The notes under the pieces: model-generated
The model's database searches: none
Told to the model about the DNA's origin: nothing
The model's input: only the letters and a program-made list of their open reading frames with translations
Translations under genes and position numbers: made by a program
Shown: one piece after another, positions 16,928 through 55,658 of the stretch
Numbering within the stretch: position 1 is the stretch's first letter
How the letters are laid out: the number at the start of each line of letters is the position of its first letter
DNA from: an uncultured Methanosarcinaceae archaeon
GTDB lineage: Archaea > Halobacteriota > Methanosarcinia > Methanosarcinales > Methanosarcinaceae
Direction of reading: 5' to 3'
DNA: 64,000 bases
Assembly: GCA_963727895.1 (NCBI GenBank)
Contig: CAVSHT010000004.1
Span: 384,001 to 448,000 of the forward strand

Positions 16928-17352
16928 AATATTTTTCCCCAAAACGAATTTTAAATTGTTTGAATAATATGCACAAACAAATGAAAGTACTTTTCTGAAC
17001 CTTATATGTGTAATGAGACTAAAAGGATATTCACAGGCTGAATCTTTACTTCCAGTCCTGCTAACCAACAAACACTCCGATGTGTGGGTAACAACACATC
17101 GGGCAGACTGGCTACTGTACGATATGTAGAGCCGCTGTAGCTGGTTTTGGGGATATGATTGGAGTAATTGTGCCGGTTTGGTAAATATCCTTGAGCCAGA
17201 GGATTACAGAAGTAGCAATATTGCCACGCAGAGGATAAAATATCCCTGATTCTGAGTAAGGAAGGACATAATCAAAATTTGCCACTTTATCGCAGACTTA
17301 ACTAAATTATAAAAAAATAAATGTAAGATAATAATTCTGTTTTATAGTACTT

Positions 17353-18579
17353 ATGGAAGAAATGGAAGAAATACAGTTAAGGGTTGAAATAGCATTTCCT
17401 GTTGACCTTGGAAAAGGAATTATCCGACTTGATCCCACAACCTTGAGAAAACTTCAGCTCTCGATAGGCGACACCGTGGAAATAAAGGGTAAGAAAAAGA
17501 CCACGGCAAAAGTTTGGAGAGCTGATAGATATGAGTGGAATAAGTATTTTGTGAGAATTGATAACTTCATCCAGCAAAACGCAGGTGTTTCCATAGGAGA
17601 GAAAGTAACCATCAAAAAGGTTGAGGCCCCTGAAGCGAAAAAACTCTTTCTGGCACTTCCGGAAAGTATAATGCAGGGAGGCCCGGAACTTCAGTTTGGT
17701 GAACATGCAAATGAAATTATAAAGCAACATATTCTCAAAAGACCAGTTTTCATGGGAGACATCATTCCTATAATAAATTCAATGTCTCAGTCAATGACAG
17801 AATCTCTGACTACAAGTCAGGTAATTCCTCTAGTTGCCGTCGAGACTGATCCCTCAAATACTATAGTCAAAGTTTCCGAAGAAACTATAATAGAGCTTTC
17901 ACATAAAACAGTTAAACCAGTCAAATCTCCTGAAGAAACTGCAATAGAACTTACAAATGAGATAGTTCAATTTCCTGAAAAAAAGAAAAAATCAGTATTT
18001 AAATCTACAATTAACTATGCAAATCAAATATTAAAATCATTTAATTTAGCTATCATAAGTGACGAAGTCACAGGAGAACTAAATTTATGTGAAACCGAGG
18101 ATACGTTTATTTCAGCTACTAAAAATGTGCAAAAGAAAATTACATTTTCACCTTCTGTTTTTGAAATTCCTAAAAAACCTAATGTGCCCAACTGCGTATC
18201 TGTAATGATGCCTTTTTCAATCGAATTTGATGATGTATATGAATGTATAAAAGATGTCTGTTATGAAGTTGGAATGTCTTGCCATAGAGCAGATGATTTT
18301 TGGCATCATAGTGCGATAATTTAGGATATATTTGAACTGATTTTCCGATCATCTATTGTTGTTGTAGATTTTACTGGTAAGAATTCAAACGTTTTCTATG
18401 AAGCAGGAATCGCACATGCTCTAGGAAAGACTGTGCTCCCAATTACCCAAAATGATGAGGATATACCTTTTGATTTGAGACATCATAGATATATTTTGTA
18501 CCACAATGATAGAGAAGGATTGAAGAAATTAAAAAGAGATCTTGTTTCAAAATTAAATTTCGAGAACAATAGAGAGTAA
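17353..18579 (+). CDS. Chimera: Cdc48/VAT N-domain fused to nucleoside 2-deoxyribosyltransferase-like (TIR-fold) domain, in-frame TAG at 18322
   Basis: First ~180 aa closely match cdc48 at 53332; C-terminal VMMPF..RADD..II*DIF..VVDFTGKNSNVFYEAGIAHALGK..DIPFDLRHHR stays open to TAA at 18577. Confidence 0.85.
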
Positions 18580-18656
18580 CTCTACTTTAAGATCATAGGT
18601 TGGTTTAATAGTTAGATTTGAACGGTTCTAAAAATTATTTTGTGTGTGGCGACTAA

Positions 18657-18785
18657 GAGCTTATCCGAAAAGTCAGTAATGCATGTTGAAGTCACAATAG
18701 GTCTATAATATCAAAGTATCCGTTCCGATTTTGTATATTGCATATTGTAAAAGTTATAGCATTTGACTACTTTTCGGATAGGCTC
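18657..18785. mobile_element. MITE, 129 bp, 17-bp TIRs, TAA target duplication
   Basis: GAGCTTATCCGAAAAGT / ACTTTTCGGATAGGCTC flanked by TAA on both sides. Confidence 0.8.
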
Positions 18786-18813
18786 TAAGCATTTAATTCT
18801 ATGCGGTGAAAAC

Positions 18814-19099
18814 ATGTTTGAAAGCATAAATATCAAAGGTTTTCGTGGTTTTGCAGATAAACAAGAGCTAAAACTCGCAAAACCTCATGAAAATAACAGA
18901 GGATCGGGTCTTACGGTAATTGTTGGTCCCAATAATGGTGGGAAATCAACAATTATTGAATCTTTTAAGTTAATGTCCTCAGGGATAGATATCGACTTTA
19001 CAGAAGACCAAAGGAATAAATCAAAAGACGATGGTGTTGAAATAGTACTATCATCCGATGATGAAAGTCAAACGCACACTCTGAAAACGATTTATGCTG
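18814..19099 (+). pseudogene. ABC/SMC-like ATPase N-terminus (AAA_15/OLD/AbiEii type), truncated by IS1
   Basis: MFESINIKGFRGF...LTVIVGPNNGGKSTIIE Walker A; fused to IS1 sequence at 19100. Confidence 0.8.
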
Positions 19100-19707
19100 G
19101 TGGCTATAACTATACAGTAGAGCTAAAATCAACTGCTTTTTCCGCTTCTGTAAAAAGACAGGCTTTACAACTTTATCTTGAAGGATTGGGCTTTCGCTCA
19201 ATAGGACGAGTTTTAGGGGTAAGTCATGTTTCTGTCCAAAAATTGATAAAGAAATTTGGTCAAGAGTGAGAGAACCTAAAAAGTGAAAATGAGATATCTA
19301 TTGTTGAAATGGATGAGATGCACACTTACATCGGTAACAAAAAAAATATTGCTGGATCTGGATTGCTGTTGATAGAGTTGGGAAAAAGTTCATCAACTGC
19401 TCTTTTGGTAGCAGAGGAACATAAACTGGAAAACTACTCTGGGAAAAATTGAAGAAAAAAGAGATTGGAGAAGTGATGACCGATCACTGGAGGGCATATG
19501 CAGAGGTTCTTCCAGAAAAGATCCATACTCAATCAAAAGCAGAAACGTATACTGTTGAAGGATATAACAGCATATTGAAGCACTTTTTGGCAAGATTGAG
19601 AAGAAAGACAAAGTGTTATACGAAGAGTCTTGAAATGCTAAAGTACTAGGTTATTCTATTGATGAAATAAAGAAAGAAAGAGTTAACTATGTTTAGTTAA
19701 CAATACC
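19100..19707 (+). mobile_element. IS1-family element lacking its left end
   Basis: Near-identical to the 12520-13260 copy; right end GTTAACAATACC. Confidence 0.9.
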
Positions 19708-20164: not shown

Positions 20165-20614
20165 ATGAAACCACAAATTGGACAATGTTCAGAAAACGAT
20201 TATCTTGGGATCAAAAAACACTTAATTGATATAAAAAATTCTCTTGAATCAAGGTGTGTTTCTAGAAAACAATGCTTTACGTATACTATTCTCCTTTTTA
20301 TCCTTGCGGGCATTTTTGAAATTGGCGGAGGATACTTTATATGGATATGGTTGCGAGAAGCGGGAGGTTTGCAATTTGCATTTTTAGGAGCAATCGTCTT
20401 ATTTTTATATGGGATCGTACCGACTTTTCAACCAGCAGATTTCCATAGAATATATGCAACTTATGGGGGGATTTTTGTTGTTATGTCTATTTTATGGGGT
20501 TGGGTGTTCGACAAAACTGCTCCAGATAAATATGATCTAATAGGTGCCTTGATAATTCTTGTTGGGGTATCGATTATATACTACTGGCCCAGGAAGGATG
20601 AAGTAAATGAATGA
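20165..20614 (+). CDS. ynfA: YnfA-family small multidrug-resistance-type membrane protein, start uncertain
   Basis: LAGIFEIGGGY..W.WLRE, F.RIYATYGGIF, PDKYDLIGA. Confidence 0.85.
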   Translation: MKPQIGQCSENDYLGIKKHLIDIKNSLESRCVSRKQCFTYTILLFILAGIFEIGGGYFIWIWLREAGGLQFAFLGAIVLFLYGIVPTFQPADFHRIYATYGGIFVVMSILWGWVFDKTAPDKYDLIGALIILVGVSIIYYWPRKDEVNE

Positions 20615-20808
20615 TTTAGTTTTTTCTCTTAGGTGCCTTGATAATTCTTGTTGGGGTATCGATTATATACTACTGGCCCAGGAAGGATGAAGTAAATGAA
20701 TGATTTAGTTTTTTCTCTTAGGTGCCTTGATAATTCTTGTTGGGGTATCGATTATATACTACTGGCCCAGGAAGGATGAAGTAAATGAATGATTTAGTTT
20801 TTTCTCTT
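20541..20808. repeat. 89-bp tandem triplication of the ynfA-ynfA junction
   Basis: Identical units start at 20541, 20630 and 20719. Confidence 0.95.
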
Positions 20809-21114
20809 GGTCTTTTCTTCTTAGCTGCTTTATTTGAAATTGGAGGTGGTTATTTAGTCTGGCTATGGTTAAGGGAAGATAAAAAAATTGCTTTTGGTGT
20901 ACTTGGAGGATTAACATTAGCAATTTATGGAATCATCCCCACATTCCAGCACGCTAATTTTGGTAGGGTTTATGCTGCATATGGAGGAATTTTTATAATT
21001 TCATCTCTTATTTGGGGTGCACTTATCGATAAAAAACATCCTGATAAATTTGAAATAATTGGAGCTTTCATTGCACTTGTAGGAGTTTTTATTATGTATT
21101 ATACTCCACGATAA
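20785..21114 (+). CDS. ynfA: YnfA-family membrane protein
   Basis: LAALFEIGGGYLVWLWLRE, FGRVYAAYGGIF. Confidence 0.9.
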   Translation: MNDLVFSLGLFFLAALFEIGGGYLVWLWLREDKKIAFGVLGGLTLAIYGIIPTFQHANFGRVYAAYGGIFIISSLIWGALIDKKHPDKFEIIGAFIALVGVFIMYYTPR

Positions 21115-21684: not shown

Positions 21685-22422
21685 GGCATTGGTACATAAA
21701 AATAGATATATATGCTTATAACATATATTTCTTCAAACTGCCCCAGATGCAATAGTTCTAATTACAAAAATAATGGTATAGTTGGCGGGCGTCAACGGTA
21801 CAAATGCTCTGATTGTGGCTATAACTATACAGTAGAGCTAAAATCAACTGCTTTTTCCGCTTCTGTAAAAAGACAGGCTTTACAATTCTATCTTGAAGGA
21901 TTGGGCTTTCGTTCAATAGGAAGAGTTTTAGGGGTAAGTCATGTTTCTGTCCAAAGATGGATAAATAAATTTGGTCCGGAGTTAGAGGCTCTAAAAAGTG
22001 AAAATGAGATATCTATTGTTGAAATGGATGAGATGCATACTTACATCGGTAACAAAAAAAATATTGCTGGATCTGGATTGCTGTTGATAGAGTTGGGAAA
22101 AAGTTCATCAACTGCTCTTTTGGTAGCAGAGGAACATAAACTGGAAAACTACTCTGGGAAAAATTGAAGAAAAAAGAGATTGGAGAAGTGATGACCGATC
22201 ACTGGAGAGCATATGCAGAGTTTCTTCCAGAAAAGATCCATACTCAATCAAAAGCAGAAACGTATACTGTTGAAGGATATAACAGCATATTGAAGCACTT
22301 TTTGGCAAGATTGAGAAGAAAGACAAAGTGTTATACGAAGAGTCTTGAAATGCTAAAGTACTAGGTTATTCTATTGATGAAATAAAGAAAGAAAGAACTA
22401 GATATAGTTAAGTAACAATGCC
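21685..22422 (+). mobile_element. IS1-family element, insA ATG lost, insB prematurely stopped
   Basis: Ends GGCATTGGTAC / GTAACAATGCC. Confidence 0.92.
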
Positions 22423-29775: not shown

Positions 29776-31074
29776 ATGGAAGCTGAAATTAAAGTAATTG
29801 AAGTACACGAATTTATTTGTAGGTTTAAAAATCTAATTATAAATAAAAAGGCAAAATTTTCCTTATTTTTGGGTGCAGGCTGCTCTGTGTCATCAGGTAT
29901 CTTAACTGCGGGATTCCTCGTAGACAAAATATGGCTTCCAAAACTTAAAGAAATTGAAACAGGAGATCAGGAAAACCTCGGGGAATGGTTGAAAACAAGA
30001 TTTCCAAGTTATAACAAGAATAACGCAGCACAACTTTGCGGTGAAATAATAGAAACTCTTTTTCCAACTCCAAAAGAAAGACAAACAGAAATAGAAGACT
30101 TGGTTAAAGATTGTGATCCTGGATTTGGTTATGCTATTTTAGCAAAGCTAATGGAAAAATATAATGTTCAGTGTAACATAATTCTCACTACAAATTTTGA
30201 TGATATGATTGCAGATGCACTTTATCTTTACACTTATCAAAAGCCTATTGTTATTTTTCATGAAGCCCTCGCTGGCTTTTTAAAAATAGCCGATACGCGC
30301 CCTATGATAATTAAGTTACATGGTGACTCAAAACTTTCTCCACTTAATACGAAAGATGAAACTGATACATTAAGTAATAAAATAATACCAGTAATTAAAA
30401 ACATATTTTCAGAAACAGGACTAATATTCATTGGATATGGAGGAAATGACAGTAGCATTAACAAAATTCTTGATGAAGTATCTGATGACCAAGGCTCTTT
30501 CCCATGGGGTATTTACTGGATAGGAGAAAGAATACCAGAAAACGAGATGGGAGAATTTCTTAGAAAGAAAAATGCACTATGGGTAAAACACAAAAATTTT
30601 AATGAGCTGATGCTTTTCATAAAAGAAGAGCTAGAGCTTGAATTGCCTACAAAAGATAGATTTGATGTTTTATTTAATGGTCTTTTTAGTGAATGTGAGA
30701 ACTTAACTAAGATGGTTTACGAAAAGCCAAATTATGATGAGAAGGAACTGCTTGAAAAAGCCGTTAAAAAAGCATCAATGGAATTAATGATATCTGTAGA
30801 GCCAATACCCCAGCCAATGATATCCCCTATATGTTATGAAATTTCCAGCTTAATGACAGCGGCTCAAGCAGCTGCTAAAGATATACAACTTTCCGGCTTA
30901 ATGACAGCTACTCAAGCTGCTAAAGGTTTGAAAATGCCCACGAGCCCAATATTAAATATTGAAGAAACCTCCGAAACTTGTATAAACTCTACAGATCATG
31001 AAATAGATGAAAAACTAGAAACATCTAAAGAAGAAATCTCTCAAGATAAGAAAAAATATGAAATAAATGATTAA
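29776..31074 (+). CDS. SIR2-family (SIR2_2) protein, putative NADase
   Basis: LFLGAGCSVSSGI, ILTTNFDD, IIKLHGD, FIGYGGND. Confidence 0.9.
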   Translation: MEAEIKVIEVHEFICRFKNLIINKKAKFSLFLGAGCSVSSGILTAGFLVDKIWLPKLKEIETGDQENLGEWLKTRFPSYNKNNAAQLCGEIIETLFPTPKERQTEIEDLVKDCDPGFGYAILAKLMEKYNVQCNIILTTNFDDMIADALYLYTYQKPIVIFHEALAGFLKIADTRPMIIKLHGDSKLSPLNTKDETDTLSNKIIPVIKNIFSETGLIFIGYGGNDSSINKILDEVSDDQGSFPWGIYWIGERIPENEMGEFLRKKNALWVKHKNFNELMLFIKEELELELPTKDRFDVLFNGLFSECENLTKMVYEKPNYDEKELLEKAVKKASMELMISVEPIPQPMISPICYEISSLMTAAQAAAKDIQLSGLMTATQAAKGLKMPTSPILNIEETSETCINSTDHEIDEKLETSKEEISQDKKKYEIND

Positions 31075-31336: not shown

Positions 31337-31735
31337 TTAGTGATTTATGGAAGATTCGATAATTCGCTTGCAAATATCGTCCATCAGCTTCCAGTAATCT
31401 CTGACTTGTTGGTAGATTTCTTCTATTGCTTCTTCATCATACGTATGAGTACTGAGATTTCTATCATCGGTCATTTCAAGGACTTTTACAGTTTCTTCCT
31501 CCGAAATTATACCTACCTTAAATGCTTCTCTAAAACAAGATTTAGGTGAAGCACACTCAATGCCTTCCTTAACTCGAAGATAATCTTTTATAACCTTCCA
31601 GAAAATGTCAAATGAGTACTCAAATCTTTTAATTGAAGCATCTCTTACTATTGTTGAATATGGTTCATCAACAATTTCTTCTAAGGTTTTCAAAGCTTTT
31701 ATTGCAGTTTCAGATCTAAGCTTTAATTTTTCCAA
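31337..31735 (-). CDS. HEPN toxin (HI0074-like nucleotidyltransferase substrate-binding family)
   Basis: RDASIKRFEYSF, SPKSCFREA, DDRNLSTHTY (R-x4-H). Confidence 0.9.
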   Translation of the reverse strand: MEKLKLRSETAIKALKTLEEIVDEPYSTIVRDASIKRFEYSFDIFWKVIKDYLRVKEGIECASPKSCFREAFKVGIISEEETVKVLEMTDDRNLSTHTYDEEAIEEIYQQVRDYWKLMDDICKRIIESSINH

Positions 31736-32034
31736 ACAATACCCTCTCTAAGTGCCTTTTCTCTAAAAGCTTCCGAGACTCTGGAAAGATCTACCACATC
31801 AACAGTATAGGGAAAATTAAGATTATCAATCTTTTCTTTCAATATAACCAATTTTTTCCTGTCCAATCTATTTTCTGGAAGAATTCCAATGTCTATGTCC
31901 GAAACTTTATTATAATCCCCTCTTGCTCGCGAACCAAAAAGTATTACAATAACGTTTTCTTCTTTGAAAAACTCAATAATGAGGGATTTCAAATCTCTTA
32001 TACTTTTTTGGTAAATAGGGGTAAGACTGTTCAT
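31723..32034 (-). CDS. Minimal nucleotidyltransferase (MNT) antitoxin
   Basis: LFGSRARGDYNKVSDIDIGI; overlaps the HEPN gene. Confidence 0.9.
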   Translation of the reverse strand: MNSLTPIYQKSIRDLKSLIIEFFKEENVIVILFGSRARGDYNKVSDIDIGILPENRLDRKKLVILKEKIDNLNFPYTVDVVDLSRVSEAFREKALREGIVWKN

Positions 32035-36796: not shown

Positions 36797-38353
36797 TTAC
36801 CAAAATTTATACCATGGTTTTTTTGTTTCCGGTATTTCAATTGATTTTTGATTGATTACATGAGTATTTAAGCAAGAAATATGAGCATTTGTTTCATTAC
36901 TTTTAGGTTTCTGTTTTTCTGCTTCTTTTCCTTGAGCTATTTGTTTTAGGAGAAAGTCGTAATTCTTTTGTGCGTTTATATTTTTAGGATCATATTTTAT
37001 AGCAATCTTAAAATGTTCTTCTGCCTCTTTTTTTCTCCCTGTTTCTGCAAGAAGAACACCATAATTATTGTGCGCATTTGCATTGTTAGGCTCATATTCT
37101 AAAGCCAGTTTATACTGTTCTTCTGCCTCTCTTTTTCTTCCCATTTGTCTAAGGAAATCTCCATAATTGTTGTGTGCAATTGCAGAAGTAGGGTTACATT
37201 CAAAGGAAATCTTAAAATGTTCTTCTGCCTCTTTTTTTCTCCCTGTTTCTGCAAGAAGAACACCATAATTATTGTGCGCATTTGCATTGTTAGGCTCATA
37301 TTCTAAAGCCAGTTTATACTGTTCTTCTGCCTCTCTTTTTCTTCCCATTTGTCTAAGGAAATCTCCATAATTGTTGTGTGCAATTGCAGAAGTAGGGTTA
37401 CATTCAAAGGAAATCTTAAAATGTTCTTCTGCCTCTTTTTTTCTTCCTGTTTTTGCAAGAAGAACACCATAATTACTGTGCGTATTTGCATTATTAGGCT
37501 CATATTCTAAAGCCAATTTATACTGTTCTTCTGCCTCTTTCTTCCTTTCAGTTTCTGAAAGTAGTAATCCATAATTATTGTGCGCATTTGCATTGTTAGG
37601 CTCATATTCTAAAGCCAATTTATACTGTTCTTCTGCCTCTTTCTTTCTCTCCATTTGTCTAAGGAAATCTCCATAATTTATGTGTTTGTTTGCATTATTA
37701 GGCTCATTTTCTAAAGCCAGCTTATATTGTTCCTCTATTTCTTTATTCCTTTCTTGTGGTGAGAGATATCCATAATCATTGCATACAATTGCTCTAGTAG
37801 AATTAGAGTCCAGAGAAAACCTAGAATCTTTTTTTCTATTCTCTAGTTTTCCCTCTTCTTTGTTTTTCTCTATAAATCTGTTCTTATTTTCTGTATGGTA
37901 TCTAGAGTCATTTAGTTGCACATCTAAATCTACAGCAGTTGAGATGAGTTTAGATTCCTTTTCTTTACAAGAATCAAGGATCCTGGCATATGATTTGTTT
38001 GAGTGCATTCTCCAGTCTATATAAGAAAAATGAGCAATGATATCAGGTATAGTGCAATCTATAATTAGTAGTGGAATTAAACGACGCTTTGTATTTGTAG
38101 GATCACGAAAAAGTATAGACTGATGCTCCAGTTTTCCCCATTCTGAGCCAAAATAATCTGGAGACATACACATTAAAAGCGTGTAGGATTTTTCTAAACC
38201 TTGTTGAATCTTTAAAGGAATAGAATCTCCAGGTTGAATAACCCATGAGTCCAGCCAAACGCGCACACCATCCTTTTTAAGTCTCCTAGCAAGAGCATGT
38301 ACGGTCCTTCGATTATTCGAACTGTAGCTAAGGAAGACATCATATTCGAACAT
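36797..38353 (-). CDS. TIR domain plus TPR-repeat protein
   Basis: YDVFLSYS..GVRVWLD..IQPGD..SPDYFGSEWGKLE; about 8 TPR units of 34 aa. Confidence 0.92.
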   Translation of the reverse strand: MFEYDVFLSYSSNNRRTVHALARRLKKDGVRVWLDSWVIQPGDSIPLKIQQGLEKSYTLLMCMSPDYFGSEWGKLEHQSILFRDPTNTKRRLIPLLIIDCTIPDIIAHFSYIDWRMHSNKSYARILDSCKEKESKLISTAVDLDVQLNDSRYHTENKNRFIEKNKEEGKLENRKKDSRFSLDSNSTRAIVCNDYGYLSPQERNKEIEEQYKLALENEPNNANKHINYGDFLRQMERKKEAEEQYKLALEYEPNNANAHNNYGLLLSETERKKEAEEQYKLALEYEPNNANTHSNYGVLLAKTGRKKEAEEHFKISFECNPTSAIAHNNYGDFLRQMGRKREAEEQYKLALEYEPNNANAHNNYGVLLAETGRKKEAEEHFKISFECNPTSAIAHNNYGDFLRQMGRKREAEEQYKLALEYEPNNANAHNNYGVLLAETGRKKEAEEHFKIAIKYDPKNINAQKNYDFLLKQIAQGKEAEKQKPKSNETNAHISCLNTHVINQKSIEIPETKKPWYKFW

Positions 38354-42078: not shown

Positions 42079-42209
42079 GAGGCCATCCCAAAACCAATTT
42101 TATTCTCAAAATCATAAAATTTTCAGTATTGTTTTCATTATCCGAAGCTCAAATTAATGATTGCAAATTCAAGATCTAAATAAACGATTTTGAGTTTTGG
42201 GATCGGCTC
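42079..42209. mobile_element. 131-bp MITE
   Basis: GAGGCCATCCCAAAAC / GTTTTGGGATCGGCTC. Confidence 0.7.
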
Positions 42210-42616
42210 GATGGTAAAATAATATGTTTTAGGGATACTTCCAATTAATTTTTAGAAACAAATTCTGATTTTTTTCAATATATTTAAATAATAACAGTAA
42301 TAATGTACACTGATAACAAGTGTCATGCTATTGATTATCATATTATTGAATCTATCTCTAAATATGAAATTTAGGTCTTGTAGAAAAATTATATAAATCA
42401 GCTACAATAGACTGGAAAGAGTATACACTTAAGATGCAAAATCAAGTGCATTAGACATTGAAATTAGATTTACGTTTTAGATAATTGAAGGTTTAAAAGC
42501 TTACTGGTTTATAAAGAACCAAGATTCGCTTTTTAAATCTCGCATTTTGGATTACAAATCAAGTCTCCACTCATGAAAACAATCCGGAAAAGTGAGACTT
42601 TCTTAATATTCATTTA

Positions 42617-43867
42617 ATGTCGGTTAGTCAAAATAATTCAAAAATTAATATTGGAAGGACTGTTTCCATGGATAGAACTAATAACAGATGGTTTTACGTT
42701 GTTATCGGTATAGTATTATTTTTATTTTTAGGAATGCTTTATGCGTGGTCTTTATTTATTGCACCGCTTGAAAAGGACTTTGGATGGACTCGTGCTCAGA
42801 CATCTCTTATTTTCACAATTTCAATCATATTCTTCTGTTTAGGAGGGATGGCAGGAGGTTTTATCACTGGTAAAAAGTCTCCAAGCTTTACTACCTTGAT
42901 TTCAGCCGTTTTCCTATTGTGTGGCTTTGTTGCATCTTCAAAGATAAACAGTCTTACAGGCATTTATATAACATATGGTATCATAAGCGGCTTCGGCATT
43001 GGTCTTAGCTATAATGCGGTCATAAGCACAGTGACAAAGTGGTTTCCAGATAAAACAGGTGCAATTTCTGGCCTTCTTCTTATGGGGTTTGGTTTAGGAG
43101 GTATGCTACTTGGCTCCACTACAAATGAGCTCATCACAGCAATAGGCTGGCGTGAAACCTTTTTGTATCTAGGTATAGCCTTTGGAATAGTGGTTTTTAT
43201 AGGCTCTCGATTATTAGTGCTTCCACCTTCAAATTATGTTTTCCCAAAAGCTGTTGCCAAGGCAAAAGATGCTGATATTGTAGGTCTGGAAATAAATTCT
43301 TCTTCAATGATAAAAAGACCCACTTTTTGGATATTTCTGGTCTGGAGCATTCTATCAACTGCAATGGGTCTTGCTCTGATTGGACACGCAGCTCCTTTTG
43401 CAAGTGACCTTAAAGCCACAGCATCGCTAGCTGCCTTTGGAGTTGGTCTGATTTCGGTTTGCAATGGCTTAGGAAGGGTAGTTCTTGGGGCAGTTTGCGA
43501 TAGGATAGGTTTAAAAAAGACAATGACTATAATCAATGCAACTTATATCACAGCTATAGTGATATTAATCGCTGCAGCCGTTTCAAAGAACATTTCTCTT
43601 CTTCTTCTAGGATTTGCGCTTACAGGTCTTTCTTATGGTGGAGTTCCCACAATGAATACCGTTTTTGCAAGTGTCTTTTATGGGAAAAAATATTTTGCCC
43701 AGAATTTGGGGATAGTAAATACCAGCCTTATTGGTGCTGCACTTATTGGTCCTTATGTAGCTGGTACGCTCCGTACCGCTACAGGTTCATATTTATCAAC
43801 CCTCTATGCTATGGCCGTTCTCGCAGTCGTCGCCTTTATTGCAAACGTTCTTATCAAAAGGCCTTAA
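42617..43867 (+). CDS. MFS transporter, OFA (oxalate/formate, lactate-type) family
   Basis: About 12 TM segments; YAWSLF..PL..FGW, KWFPDKTG..G...GFGLG, NGLGR..G...DRIG. Confidence 0.9.
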   Translation: MSVSQNNSKINIGRTVSMDRTNNRWFYVVIGIVLFLFLGMLYAWSLFIAPLEKDFGWTRAQTSLIFTISIIFFCLGGMAGGFITGKKSPSFTTLISAVFLLCGFVASSKINSLTGIYITYGIISGFGIGLSYNAVISTVTKWFPDKTGAISGLLLMGFGLGGMLLGSTTNELITAIGWRETFLYLGIAFGIVVFIGSRLLVLPPSNYVFPKAVAKAKDADIVGLEINSSSMIKRPTFWIFLVWSILSTAMGLALIGHAAPFASDLKATASLAAFGVGLISVCNGLGRVVLGAVCDRIGLKKTMTIINATYITAIVILIAAAVSKNISLLLLGFALTGLSYGGVPTMNTVFASVFYGKKYFAQNLGIVNTSLIGAALIGPYVAGTLRTATGSYLSTLYAMAVLAVVAFIANVLIKRP

Positions 43868-53331: not shown

Positions 53332-55658
53332 ATGGAAGAAATACAGTTGAAGGTTGAAAAAGCATATCCTATCGACCTTGGAAGAGGAATTATCCGACTG
53401 GACCCTACAACTTTGTTGAAGCTTCAGCTCTCACCAGGCGACATCGTGGAAATTAGAGGTAAGAAAAAGACCACGGCAAAGGTTTGGAGAGCTGATCGGC
53501 AGGACTGGGATCAGGGACTCGTGAGAATTGATAACTTCATCCGGCAAAATGCAAGTGTTTCCATAGGAGAGAAGGTAACCATCAAAAAGGTTGAAGCCCC
53601 TGAGGCGAAAAAACTTGTTCTGGCACTTCCGGAAAGCATGATGCAGGGAGGTCCTGAACTTCAGTTTGGGGAACATGCAAATGAAATTATAAAGCGACAC
53701 ATTCTCAAAAGGCCGGTTTTTAGGGGAGACATAATTCCTATAATAAATTCAATGTCTCAACCAATGACGGAATCTCTGACTACAAGCCAGGTAATTCCTC
53801 TTGTTGCTGTCGAGACTGAGCCTTCAAATACTATCGTTCTTGTTACAGAAACTACGCTTATCGAACTTCGAAAAAAGCCGGTACAAGGATACGAAAAAGC
53901 AACCCGAGGCGTAACTACCTATGAAGACATAGGAGGTCTCGGGAATGAAATCATGCGTGTCCGAGAAATTATAGAGATGCCTATGAAGCATCCTGAGCTT
54001 TTCGCCCACCTTAATATCGAGCCTCCAAAAGGAGTCATTCTCTATGGCCCACCCGGAACCGGAAAAACTCTGATTGCAAAAGCCGTAGCTAATGAATCTG
54101 GGGCAAGTTTCCATTACATTGCTGGTCCTGAGATTGTAGGAAAATTCTATGGAGAAAGTGAAGAAAGGCTCAGGAAGATCTTTGAAGAGGCAACTCAGGA
54201 TGCGCCGTCGGTCATTTTTATTGATGAAATCGACTCCATTGCTCCAAAAAGAGAGAATGTAACAGGAGAAGTGGAAAGACGAGTGGTCGCCCAACTTCTG
54301 ACTCTTCTTGATGGAATGGAAGAAAGAGGACAGGTTGTGGTTATCGGAGCCACAAACCGTGTGGATGCTATTGACCCCGCACTCAGGAGACCAGGTCGCT
54401 TTGATAGAGAAATCCATATAGGCGTGCCTGATACAAAAGATAGATATGAGATCCTCCAGATCCATACAAGGGGTATGCCCATAGAAAGAGACGAGGAAAA
54501 GAGGAAATCGAAAAAGCTGAAAATGAAGTTGATGAAGCTACTCTGGAGAGAGAAAGGAAAGAAAAGGCAGATAAATACCTGATGTATCTGGCTGAAAGAA
54601 CCCAGGGGTTTGTAGGCGCAGATTTGCTGGCCCTTGTGCAGGAAGCCGCTATGCGGTGTCTCAGAGAAAATCTGCCGGATCTTGACCTTGAAAAGGAAGC
54701 AATTCCACCAGAAAGACTGGAAAAAATCGTTGTAACCAAGAAAAACTTTGAAGATGCCCTGATTGAGGCAGAACCCTCAGCTCTTAGAGAAATTTATGTA
54801 GAGATGCCCACAGTTAGCTGGAATGATGTGGGAGGGCTCGATGAAGCAAAGCAGTCCATTATTGAGGCTGTGGAATGGCCCATTAAAAGTCCGGAAAAGT
54901 TCACTAAGATGGGTATAAAAGCTCCTAGAGGAATCCTACTTTACGGCCCACCAGGGACTGGAAAAACCCTGATAGCAAAGGCTGTTTCCCATGAGTCAAA
55001 TGCGAACTTCATAAGCGTAAAAGGACCTGAGATTTTTTCAAAGTGGCTTGGAGAATCGGAAAAAGCCATCCGAGAAATATTCAAGAAAGCTCGGCAAGTT
55101 TCCCCATGTGTGGTATTCTTTGACGAAATAGATTCGATTGCTTCGATGCCAGGAATGGAATCTACGGATAGTCGAACTTCAGAAAGAGTACTCAATCAGC
55201 TCCTGACAGAGATGGACGGACTTGAATCTCTCAAAGATGTAGTGGTAATTGCCGCAACCAATCGCCCTAACCTTCTGGATCCTGCAATTATCCGCCCTGG
55301 ACGTTTTGACAGATTGGTTTACATAGGTTCTCCTGACCGAAAAGGCAGACTCAAGATATTCAACATTCATACAAACGATACACCTCTTGCTGATGATGTG
55401 GCTCTTGAAAACCTTGCTGATATTACTGAGGGATACGTGGGTGCTGATATAGAGTCAGTGTGCAGAGAAGCTGTAATGATTGCGCTCAGGGAGAACTTCG
55501 ATGTAGAAAGCATAGAAATGAGACACTTTAAGGAAGCTCTGAAAAAGGTAAAACCAACAATTACGGAAGATATTGCTCAGTTCTACGAGAAGATCGAAGC
55601 TCATTTCAAAGGAGGCCAGAGACTCACAAATACAGCTGGTTATATTGGTTACAGGTAA
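53332..55658 (+). pseudogene. cdc48: Cdc48/VAT AAA ATPase, frameshifted near 54495 (real or sequencing error)
   Basis: N-domain; D1 and D2 each with YGPPGTGKT and DEID; linker [32 protein letters not shown] lies in the second ORF frame. Confidence 0.9.

Follow-up and report, generated by a model that had tools for sequence, protein, structure and literature searches.

Proteins built from a variable N-terminal domain and a toxin-like C-terminal domain in one gene have already been described among abortive-infection systems. Fusions of AbiJ-NTD2, AbiJ-NTD3 or AbiJ-NTD5 to a 'TIR' domain, and of AbiJ-NTD1 to an NDT domain, were reported in 2013 by Anantharaman et al., and the sections of that work dealing with them propose that the N-terminal domains are sensors and the C-terminal domains toxins in abortive infection (PMC3710099). 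Background of another kind comes from Methanosarcina mazei infected with the virus MetSV, where, in the passages of PMC9694453 on induced host factors, a 'CDC48 family protein' of the host, MM_RS02400, is co-induced with the viral replication genes and is proposed to work to the benefit of the virus; the second host factor that MetSV induces is the single-stranded DNA-binding protein (SSB) RepA1. Literature searches (supplements left aside) gave no description of a Cdc48 N-domain fused to a TIR/NDT domain, the architecture of the gene analysed here. This gene lies in the window, by which we mean the whole stretch of 64,000 nucleotides that was analysed.

Layout of the fusion gene and the origin of its N-domain

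The features of the gene, together with the resident cdc48, are as follows.

17353..18579, + strand: complete fusion gene of 408 codons and a stop codon, interrupted by a single in-frame TAG (ORF listing, translation)
17353..17370, + strand: 9-nt tandem repeat ATGGAAGAA, two copies at the gene start, encoding MEEMEE (sequence)
17374..17625, + strand: CDC48_N subdomain, double-psi beta-barrel, aa 8-91 (Pfam PF02359, E 4e-25)
17695..17922, + strand: CDC48_2 subdomain, aa 115-190 (Pfam PF02933, E 2e-11)
17865..17970, + strand: 54-nt stretch duplicated in tandem where the domains meet, its copies diverged (repeat search, 75% identical)
17977..18093, + strand: linker module made of a helix and a beta-hairpin, aa 209-247 (predicted models)
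18139..18180, + strand: conserved ITFSPSVFEIPKKP segment preceding the enzyme domain (family alignment)
18181..18576, + strand: NDT/TIR-fold (flavodoxin-like) domain, aa 277-408, putative N-glycosidase effector
18322..18324, + strand: in-frame TAG, aa 324 (translation, homologue alignments)
18400..18402, + strand: GAA codon of Glu350 (family alignment, n = 76)
53332..55658, + strand: resident cdc48, source lineage of the fusion's N-domain

The original prediction saw in the N-terminal part a close copy of the N-domain of the cdc48 at 53332, and this is borne out by the protein alignment, in which residues 4-188 of the fusion match residues 1-185 of the cdc48 ORF without a gap (154 of 185 identical, 83%, E 1e-107), and by the two Pfam families, whose curated cut-offs are both exceeded (CDC48_N with 88.2 bits against 35.1, CDC48_2 with 43.8 bits against 22.4). 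The similarity, claimed to end where the D1 ATPase would begin, stops at about residues 185-188, at the start of the Cdc48 N-D1 linker. The long identical DNA runs that were also claimed are less marked than described, the longest being 26 nt, which does not exceed what is expected at such identity (permutation P ~0.8); at the DNA level the N-domain is 85.5% identical to the resident cdc48, and 48 of the 78 differences over 537 nt fall at third codon positions. The fold of the N-domain is predicted confidently, with pLDDT of 83-96 in most 10-residue blocks, block means for the CDC48_N region of the full-length model also lying at 83-96. A 1-nt deletion near 54499 breaks the resident cdc48 itself, which is read as two ORFs (its orthologues have 775-798 aa).

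The check by an N-domain tree against host cdc48 gave the answer that had been foreseen. The N-domain shares 83% identity with the resident cdc48, compared with 61-66% for the cdc48 of other genera (g13 and g2 excepted), and in DNA trees it is nested among the closest cdc48 relatives of the host (UFboot 84-87; 77-86 with third positions). Identity and phylogeny together show the N-domain to be a copy that originated from Methanosarcina's own cdc48. The nesting in the host clade might also mean that gene conversion from the resident cdc48 has refreshed the N-domain of the window copy; monophyly of the three fusions for which DNA was at hand is not rejected (AU test, p=0.29), long identical tracts shared with cdc48 are not in excess, and a FastTree protein tree unites all 23 Cdc48-N fusions, with a low support of 0.66.

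Since its capture the domain has changed fast. Its dN/dS is 0.18-0.50 in the fusions, as compared with a median of 0.029 over 432 pairs of cdc48 orthologues, that is, about 6-17 times faster evolution, and the same low median means that the host Cdc48 N-domain bears no arms-race signature across those pairs. Members of the fusion family depart from Cdc48 at 12-64 of the 141 sites that are invariant in Cdc48, most of them at 20-64, and Cdc48 positions 144-146, in the Nc subdomain, are missing from 13 of the 23 fusions. Judged from these alignments, the divergence would suit a diversifying sensor no less than a faithful mimic.

The short diverged duplication that had been noticed where the Cdc48 similarity ends is a 54-nt tandem repeat, its copies at 17865-17916 and 17919-17970 being 75% identical. 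It adds 18 aa and is private to the window copy, being present in none of the 16 aligned homologues and missing likewise from a related metagenome contig (run X2). The full-length model gives the duplicated stretch a pLDDT below 50, and the N-domain and the enzyme domain are thus joined through a junction predicted to be disordered. The following helix-hairpin linker is shared with relatives of about 290 aa that carry no Cdc48 domain (the alignment with P0047 begins at aa 220), and F270 in the ITFSPSVFEIPKKP segment is invariant across 76 sequences. At the other end of the protein, where the window copy reads MEEMEE, most homologues start with MEEIQL, and a membrane-type fusion, P0025, with MEEIEE.

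The C-terminal domain as a cassette

The part described in the original prediction as replacing the ATPases, VMMPF..RADD..DFTGKNSNVFYEAGIAHALGK..PFDLR, is present in the translation, and no AAA match was found in the fusion. The predicted structure (pLDDT 85 for the C-terminal fold) has the form of a flavodoxin-like domain with a Glu opening the helix after the fourth strand, as in the superfamily of Pfam Nuc_deoxyrib_tr (PF05014). The Pfam model itself matches the window protein weakly (E 0.04-0.18, 12.4-14.5 bits, cut-off 28.8) and, among the best 147 relatives, exceeds the cut-off in 3 and reaches E<=1e-4 in 7. The Glu, E350, is invariant in all 76 aligned family members and, in a narrow-profile search of PDB sequences, falls on the YE Glu of Rcl/DNPH1, a weak match (E 0.09); a wide-profile search of the same sequences gave none. 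The PADLOC 'Effector TIR' model matches the C-domain at 6e-10, and neither Pfam TIR model (PF13676, PF01582) matches the fusion at E<=1. The claim of an NDT/TIR fold with a catalytic-type Glu therefore finds support in the predicted model, in the PADLOC match and in the invariance of E350. With a dN/dS of 0.06-0.16 the C-domain is under purifying selection, and it would cleave an N-glycosidic bond in NAD+ or in a nucleotide.

A profile of the C-module recovers 29,139 representatives at E<=1e-3, and the N-terminal partners were tallied on the best 147 of them. AbiJ_NTD5 is found on 23, AbiJ_NTD3 on 1 and a DnaG-type Zn ribbon with NTD5 on 2; response regulator, CHAT, SpoIIE, Metallophos and integrase domains occur once or twice each, the integrase fusions being 2 of the 147, and P0223 alone bears a distant CDC48_N plus CDC48_2. 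By these domain architectures the C-module is a swappable cassette, and in thousands of relatives it stands under AbiJ-NTD5, AbiJ-NTD3 or other N-terminal domains. The N-domain, for its part, occurs on further conflict modules, namely on multi-TM proteins (P0025, P0026, P0029, P0030, P0037 and P0271) and on a PifA-like KAP NTPase in P0027 (PADLOC PifA, 7e-29). The genome of the window also encodes a paralogue in which this enzyme family is coupled to an RPA/SSB-like domain.

Distribution, neighbourhood and the in-frame TAG

The fusion is found beyond the window assembly. There are 14 intact homologues of 380-400 aa (98-99% query coverage, 62-70% identity), coming from Methanosarcina soligelidi, M. 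mazei, Methanosarcina sp. DH1 and metagenomes, all of them named 'hypothetical protein' in the databases, and their C-domains evolve under the purifying selection noted above; the original prediction thus survives two of the outcomes by which it could have fallen, a fusion confined to this assembly and a lack of intact homologues under such selection. An assembly chimera or junk made by IS elements is ruled out by the same intact homologues. The gene is rare all the same. A search with the N-domain found it in 1 of 61 genomes of the family, no second copy of the Cdc48 N-domain was detected in 40 other genomes of the genus or 60 other genomes of the family (overlapping sets), and scans with the family alignment returned no confirmed relative on the contigs of species-representative genomes and only two full-length loci in metagenomes. 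As far as these genome comparisons reach, the fusion constitutes a rare, conserved gene family restricted to Methanosarcina, and it is an accessory gene.

The fusion sits in an IS-rich accessory island with other defence genes. The window holds a SIR2_2 gene (29776-31071), HepT/MNT (31337-32031) and a TIR_2-TPR gene (36797-38350), so that the SIR2, TIR and toxin-antitoxin genes named in the original prediction are indeed there; they do not adjoin the fusion, from which they are separated by 11-19 kb and by IS elements. Besides many IS elements, the window contains a DUF927 gene and a GajA/AriA-like ATPase fragment. Next to the fusion stand, in the window, a SpoIIAA-like gene and an ATPase fragment; this fragment, which lies on the downstream side of the fusion, is missing from both homologous loci, and no flanking gene is common to the window and these two loci. 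One homologue has a phage-type integrase at a distance of 1.3 kb. No Thoeris or CBASS partner (ThsA, cyclase) was seen in the window or among the 15 ORFs scanned around loci L031 and L032, and Rfam models matched nothing over 17000-19200 at E<=1.

The column of the in-frame TAG holds Gln in 16 of 16 aligned homologues and is at least 90% conserved over 76 family members, and by these alignments the window copy carries a CAG>TAG change where Gln is conserved. Either this is a null allele of very recent origin, or its expression depends entirely on pyrrolysine read-through, which may not occur because pylS is split in this genome. Decay beyond the stop is ruled out by a dN/dS of 0.07-0.08 after the TAG, equal to that between intact copies. 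Run X1 yields two contigs that match the window without a difference at 17200-17431 and 18066-18268, the TAG lying outside both. The allele provides a natural case in which one may ask whether ambiguous UAG decoding could make the expression of a toxic gene conditional.

Proposed function and comparison with known systems

On the architecture of the gene, its conservation, the host origin of its N-domain, the fold with its conserved Glu and the mobile and defence context, we regard it as somewhat probable that the fusion is a single-protein defence gene of the abortive-infection type, with a host-derived sensor and a constant C-terminal toxin made up of the helix-hairpin linker and the NDT/TIR-fold domain. 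From these features we infer a role in defence, the activity of the enzyme, what is bound and how the protein is switched on. The sensor slot would be filled by the substrate- and adaptor-binding N-domain copied from the Cdc48/VAT unfoldase, and this domain would bind something that normally engages Cdc48, the candidates being a viral protein exploiting or blocking Cdc48 and clients of the Cdc48 type that accumulate in the course of infection. This contact would release or assemble the enzyme, and cleavage of the N-glycosidic bond of NAD+ or of a nucleotide would arrest the infected cell. Points against the reading are that neither a conserved partner gene nor a known system such as Thoeris or CBASS adjoins the fusion in the window or the two homologous loci, that host Cdc48 bears no arms-race signature and that the window copy has a stop codon within its frame.

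A special case of this explanation is the strict integrated decoy put forward in the original prediction, in which the N-domain, as a mimic of Cdc48, would catch a viral Cdc48 binder or inhibitor and switch on nucleotide cleavage; we hold it only tentatively and think it rather unlikely. It is in keeping with an N-domain that matches the resident cdc48 at 83% identity and is nested in the cdc48 clade, with the presence of the same N-domain on three unrelated effector modules, with the induction by MetSV of a CDC48 family protein that, in the passages seen in PMC9694453, the virus is proposed to use, and with the RPA/SSB-like paralogue fusion, which parallels the induction of SSB RepA1 in the same account. 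It is weakened, as a model of mimicry, by the far drift of most fused N-domains from Cdc48, with 20-64 of 141 invariant positions altered in most members and the Nc deletion of positions 144-146 in 13 of 23; moreover, the CDC48 paralogue induced by MetSV may be another than the resident cdc48, and the literature searches (supplements left aside) gave no archaeal viral protein that binds Cdc48. Taken further, the idea would amount to an integrated-decoy immunity of Methanosarcina, in which the client- and adaptor-binding N-domain of Cdc48, an essential and nearly invariant unfoldase, would be carried by at least three unrelated suicide modules, a PifA-like KAP NTPase, a membrane module and the NDT/TIR-fold hydrolase, and would trap Cdc48-hijacking viral proteins, being reshuffled and possibly refreshed from cdc48, and in which the RPA/SSB-like fusion of the same genome may do likewise for a second host factor. 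We consider this speculative and unlikely; if true, it would be a prokaryotic counterpart of the integrated decoys of plant NLRs and would suggest that archaeal viruses target Cdc48.

It is a good deal less probable that the gene is a weapon or addiction module of a mobile element or virus, interfering with the adaptors or clients of host Cdc48 or killing cells that lose the element. The integrase 1.3 kb from a homologue, the IS elements and DUF927 gene that crowd the window, the patchy distribution and the integrase domains on 2 of the 147 best relatives could all be read in this way, but defence genes too are found in such a mobile context, no conserved antitoxin-like partner adjoins the gene in the window or the two homologous loci, and the N-domain is nearest to a chromosomal cdc48 of Methanosarcina and not to a viral homologue. 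A housekeeping regulator, whose ATPase-less N-domain would compete for Cdc48 adaptors or substrates while its C-domain merely bound a nucleotide, seems very improbable, for although NDT/TIR/SLOG-like folds can also act as ligand binders, the N-domain search gave a copy in just 1 of 61 genomes of the family, the gene belongs to an accessory island, its catalytic-type Glu is the same in all aligned members, the PADLOC match is to a defence-effector model and relatives bear AbiJ-type N-termini.

Prokaryotic immune sensors are mostly of obscure origin and specificity, and here the candidate sensor, set on a known toxin cassette, can be recognised as the recent copy of a domain from an essential host machine. 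Its presence on three effector types leads to a testable idea of what may be sensed, namely something that engages the Cdc48 N-domain, and this would offer a handle on viral factors exploiting Cdc48 in archaea, whose virus-host biology is little known and for which a culturable pair, MetSV and M. mazei, exists.

Among known systems, Cdc48/VAT/p97 shares with the fusion the CDC48_N and CDC48_2 subdomains, 83% identical to the resident cdc48; unlike it, the fusion has no D1/D2 ATPases (TIGR01243 scores 106.7 bits as against 802.65, over profile positions 2-169 only), so that it is unable to unfold substrates, and nothing would require it to be hexameric. From the NDT superfamily (NDT, Rcl/DNPH1, the CMP hydrolase MilB) it differs in a Pfam score below the cut-off and in an architecture of the conflict type and not that of a salvage enzyme, and from the TIR NADase effectors of CBASS, Thoeris and SPARTA in the missing Pfam TIR match and in having no cyclase, ThsA or Argonaute nearby. 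PifA and the KAP NTPases are represented by the sibling P0027, which carries the same N-domain on another effector module, one absent from the window. The integrated decoys of plant NLRs resemble the fusion by analogy only, in that an immune-type protein has taken up the copy of a host domain, while the fusion lacks a P-loop domain and the STAND/NB-ARC-LRR chassis, a KAP NTPase occurring only in P0027. The AbiJ-NTD proteins with TIR/NDT domains, as far as the sections of PMC3710099 on them go, have a homologous C-cassette and the same single-gene plan, with a sensor that varies at the N-terminus and a toxin at the C-terminus, and relatives of the fusion at 50-63% identity bear AbiJ_NTD3 or AbiJ_NTD5, some with the DnaG-type Zn ribbon, as described there. 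The fusion has no HEPN match and hence is not AbiJ itself; what sets it apart from the AbiJ-NTD proteins is an N-module that is a recent copy of the host's Cdc48 N-domain.

The fusion gene and its family

The fusion gene consists of an open reading frame that reaches an in-frame TAG and continues in the same frame to a TAA, 408 codons in all, and its N-terminal part corresponds, as had been predicted, to the N-domain of the resident cdc48, the host Cdc48/VAT unfoldase gene.

17353-18579, plus strand: fusion gene; ORF 17353-18324 with TAG at 18322-18324, then same frame to TAA at 18577-18579
17865-17916 and 17919-17970: diverged tandem duplication of 54 nt, copies 75% identical, at the end of the Cdc48 similarity
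53332-55658, plus strand: resident cdc48, with a 1-nt deletion near 54499, inside the acidic D1 insert, that divides it into ORFs of 416 and 358 aa

The ungapped alignment between fusion residues 4-188 and the opening 185 residues of the cdc48 ORF at 53332 has 154/185 identities, and Pfam recognizes CDC48_N (4e-25) and CDC48_2 (2e-11). Of the 537 DNA positions compared between the two N-domains 78 differ, including 48 third codon positions; the long identical DNA runs claimed in the original prediction come down to a maximum of 26 nt, unremarkable at such identity (P about 0.8). The similarity does end at a short diverged duplication before D1, as proposed, at the start of the Cdc48 N-D1 linker; this duplication is private to the window copy, being present in 0 of 16 homologues and absent also from a related metagenome contig.

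Among 5.8 billion proteins searched, intact homologues form 14 clusters (380-400 aa, 98-99% query coverage, 62-70% identity), and there are a few fragmentary ones besides. Annotated entries exist for one of them in both Methanosarcina soligelidi and an M. mazei MAG, and for a second in Methanosarcina sp. DH1; every database name is 'hypothetical protein'. DNA was recovered for two full-length homologues from metagenomes (loci L031 and L032), and dN/dS was calculated among the three copies. Intact homologues under purifying selection, on which the original prediction depended, thus exist, and the fusion is a real, conserved gene family.

Table. dN/dS of fusion regions and of true cdc48
Enzyme domain, three copies: 0.06-0.16
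Linker: 0.20-0.31
Fusion N-domain: 0.18-0.50
N-domain of true cdc48, 432 orthologue pairs: median 0.029, maximum 0.144
Window copy 3' of TAG: 0.07-0.08
Region 3' of TAG, intact pair: 0.08

The TAG (codon 324) stands where all 16 aligned homologues carry Gln, in a column at least 90% conserved over 76 wider-family members, so that the window carries a CAG-to-TAG change; since constraint beyond it equals that of the intact copies, the stop is very recent, read through, or an error. In M. acetivorans, UAG is decoded as stop and as pyrrolysine alike with no motif required (PMC12626013), so that such a codon need not inactivate a Methanosarcina gene. The available reads of the identical strain leave this codon uncovered. 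Whether it can be read as pyrrolysine in this host depends in part on pylS, which is broken into two ORFs (286 and 154 aa) beside an intact tRNA-Pyl(CUA).

Own genome, contig C12, about 42192-42909 (loci L006/L007): split pylS, next to tRNA-Pyl(CUA) and pylB

The cdc48 orthologues in 39 genomes of the genus are single ORFs of 775-798 aa, bar one copy cut at a contig end, and the split in the resident gene, an essential one, is due either to an assembly indel or to a true frameshift. Taken together, the two split genes indicate either a decaying strain or indel errors in the assembly of this Methanosarcina-group genome (3.67 Mb, 19 contigs), whose completeness of 84% would fit the latter.

Origin and partners of the N-domain

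This type of cdc48 is present as one copy in 39 of 40 other genomes of the genus, with N-domains 92-98% identical, and the picture is alike in 60 other genomes of the family, where N-domain identity is 88-89% in one genus (g13), 81% in another (g2) and 61-66% elsewhere. The fusion N-domain, 83% identical, is therefore derived from the Methanosarcina cdc48 lineage. No second copy of the N-domain in a short ORF was found in those 60 genomes. Protein change in the fusion N-domain (dN 0.089 at dS 0.49) is far above that of orthologues at similar or larger synonymous distance (dN 0.010-0.037 at dS 0.31-1.67).

DNA trees place the window N-domain inside the clade that unites the resident cdc48 with its two nearest relatives (UFboot 84-87; 77-86 with third positions only), the other two fusions with DNA branching outside that clade; monophyly of the three fusions was not rejected in a constraint test (AU p=0.29). 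In a protein tree of 71 sequences (23 fused and 48 cdc48 N-domains) the fusions group together weakly (support 0.66), with effector types intermixed, and nearest to the window N-domain are the membrane-type fusions P0025 and P0026 (support 0.86), the former sharing with it three extra starting residues. Near the junction, derived residues recur at Cdc48 position 172 (Thr>Ser in 17/23 fusions) and position 170 (Leu>Gln in 19/23). We read this history as a single old capture, after which effector modules were shuffled; a later exchange with the resident cdc48 is possible in the window lineage.

In six proteins (P0025, P0026, P0029, P0030, P0037 and P0271) a Cdc48 N-domain of Methanosarcina type, 81% identical to the window one in P0025, is followed by a coiled-coil and a multi-pass membrane region; P0027 carries the same N-domain on a KAP NTPase with a PifA match (PADLOC, 7e-29), and P0223 a far more distant Cdc48_N-type domain on the same NDT/TIR-like cassette (31% identity overall). 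Pairing of Cdc48-type N-domains with conflict-type modules is therefore recurrent. The membrane module also occurs without a Cdc48 N-domain (P0272-P0275). The host's own genome may contain a further instance of this enzyme joined to a domain from a host factor.

Own genome, contig C8 (1375-2340 of locus L005): RPA/SSB-like paralogue, 321 aa, with NDT/TIR-like N-terminus (PADLOC 'Effector TIR', 5e-5)

Its C-terminus is replication-factor-A/SSB-like (NCBIfam, 1e-22) and shares 46% identity with two RPA-like ORFs, each of 427 aa, that this genome also encodes.

The C-terminal domain and the neighbourhood

In the AlphaFold2 model of aa 206-408, built on an alignment of 76 sequences (mean pLDDT 85.4), a long helix is followed by a beta-hairpin; a disordered stretch and the conserved ITFSPSVFEIPKKP segment then precede a three-layer alpha/beta domain. 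In the full-length model (mean pLDDT 83.2, pTM 0.49) the domains are confident, the junctions fall below pLDDT 50 and the inter-domain arrangement carries no confidence. Foldseek matches NDT, DNPH1 and TIR structures at E 1e-4 to 1e-3, so the modelled fold is NDT/TIR-like, with the two indistinguishable by fold. The family-profile motif ivvvDfsgrNpNVfYEtGiAHtLGk aligns to VVVAEVTQPSLGVGYELGRAVALGK of Rcl/DNPH1 at a non-significant E of 0.09. Glu350 is invariant (76/76 sequences). In NDT this Glu is the nucleophile, as the title of a work listed in PMC3710099 states; it would also have a role in Rcl and be equivalent to the catalytic Glu of TIR NADases. The NDT/TIR fold of the original prediction is supported, with its conserved Glu, and the PADLOC model 'Effector TIR' matches at 6e-10; for Pfam Nuc_deoxyrib_tr the window protein scores under the cut-off, which 3 of 147 relatives exceed.

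The gene lies in an accessory, IS-rich region where the SIR2, TIR and toxin-antitoxin genes originally predicted are indeed found.

Fusion-gene region: IS110, IS1 fragments, three IS6/IS240 copies, one DDE_Tnp_1 element; a DUF927 gene
18814-19269: first ~95 aa of a P-loop ATPase, GajA/AriA/PtuA-like (AAA_15/AAA_23), leading directly into IS1-family InsA-like sequence 184 bp downstream
21712-22364: second IS1 copy
29776-31071: SIR2_2 protein, Argonaute-associated SIR2-APAZ-type models (PADLOC, 5e-40)
36797-38350, minus strand: TIR_2 with long TPR array, 517 aa (PADLOC PDC-S66 and ThsB-like models)

The ATPase remnant looks like a defence gene destroyed by IS activity. Two tandem YnfA/UPF0060 membrane protein genes (20165-21114) lie between the two IS1 copies, and the SIR2_2 gene is flanked by small ORFs upstream and a HepT/MNT pair downstream, with no Argonaute-sized ORF noticed beside it. 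A 39-nt stretch (18652-18690) that separates the fusion gene from the ATPase remnant recurs in many contigs from three metagenome runs, where the sequence to either side of it is unrelated. It occurs only once in its own genome at up to 3 mismatches and has no Rfam match. At L032 the homologue adjoins a phage-type integrase; no neighbour is common to the window, L031 and L032, and the fusion would therefore act as a single gene.

A putative sensor and its known relatives

The original prediction holds in what it observed and is supported in part in its interpretation. What the data show is the architecture, its conservation, the host origin of the N-domain, the fold with its invariant Glu and the mobile and defence setting. 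In the mechanism that we propose, the N-domain would recognize a normal ligand of the Cdc48 N-domain, and binding would release or assemble the C-terminal putative N-glycosidase, which would deplete NAD+ or nucleotides. The ligand might be Cdc48-type clients piling up in infection or, in the decoy version, a viral protein using or blocking Cdc48. When MetSV infects M. mazei, dual RNA-seq shows induction of the host's 'CDC48 family protein' and of the SSB RepA1 along with viral replication genes, and the authors propose that the virus makes use of both (PMC9694453). The induced paralogue may be other than this cdc48. The decoy is the most interesting reading left; in its strict form the fused N-domain would mimic that of Cdc48 for a viral ligand, but most fused N-domains are altered at 20-64 of 141 cdc48-invariant positions.

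The C-terminal module is an exchangeable cassette. A profile search with it over 1.84 billion representatives gave 29,139 proteins with E<=1e-3, of which 1,649 reach E<=1e-30, and partner domains were counted in the best 147.

Table. Partner domains in the best 147 matches
AbiJ_NTD5: 23
AbiJ_NTD3: 1
DnaG-type Zn ribbon with NTD5: 2
Response regulator receiver: 2
Integrase: 2
CHAT, SpoIIE, Metallophos, TPR: 1 each
Distant CDC48_N+CDC48_2 (P0223): 1
No Pfam partner: most of the remainder

The closest relatives without a Cdc48 domain (about 290 aa; Methanosarcinales, Methanoperedens and ANME groups) are about 60% identical to the fusion from residue about 220 on and have an unrelated N-terminal ~98 aa, whose place the Cdc48 N-domain therefore took. 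Anantharaman et al. (2013, PMC3710099), in their passages on these architectures, describe 'TIR' behind AbiJ-NTD2/3/5, a DnaG Zn ribbon combined with NTD5, and NDT behind NTD1, and propose that the NTDs sense invader components and the C-terminal enzymes are suicide toxins; a Cdc48 N-domain in the sensor slot goes unmentioned in those passages, and further literature searches found no description of one in the AbiJ-NTD slot. The known element is a single-protein sensor-toxin of the AbiJ-NTD/TIR-NDT class, and the new one is a Cdc48 N-domain as its sensor.
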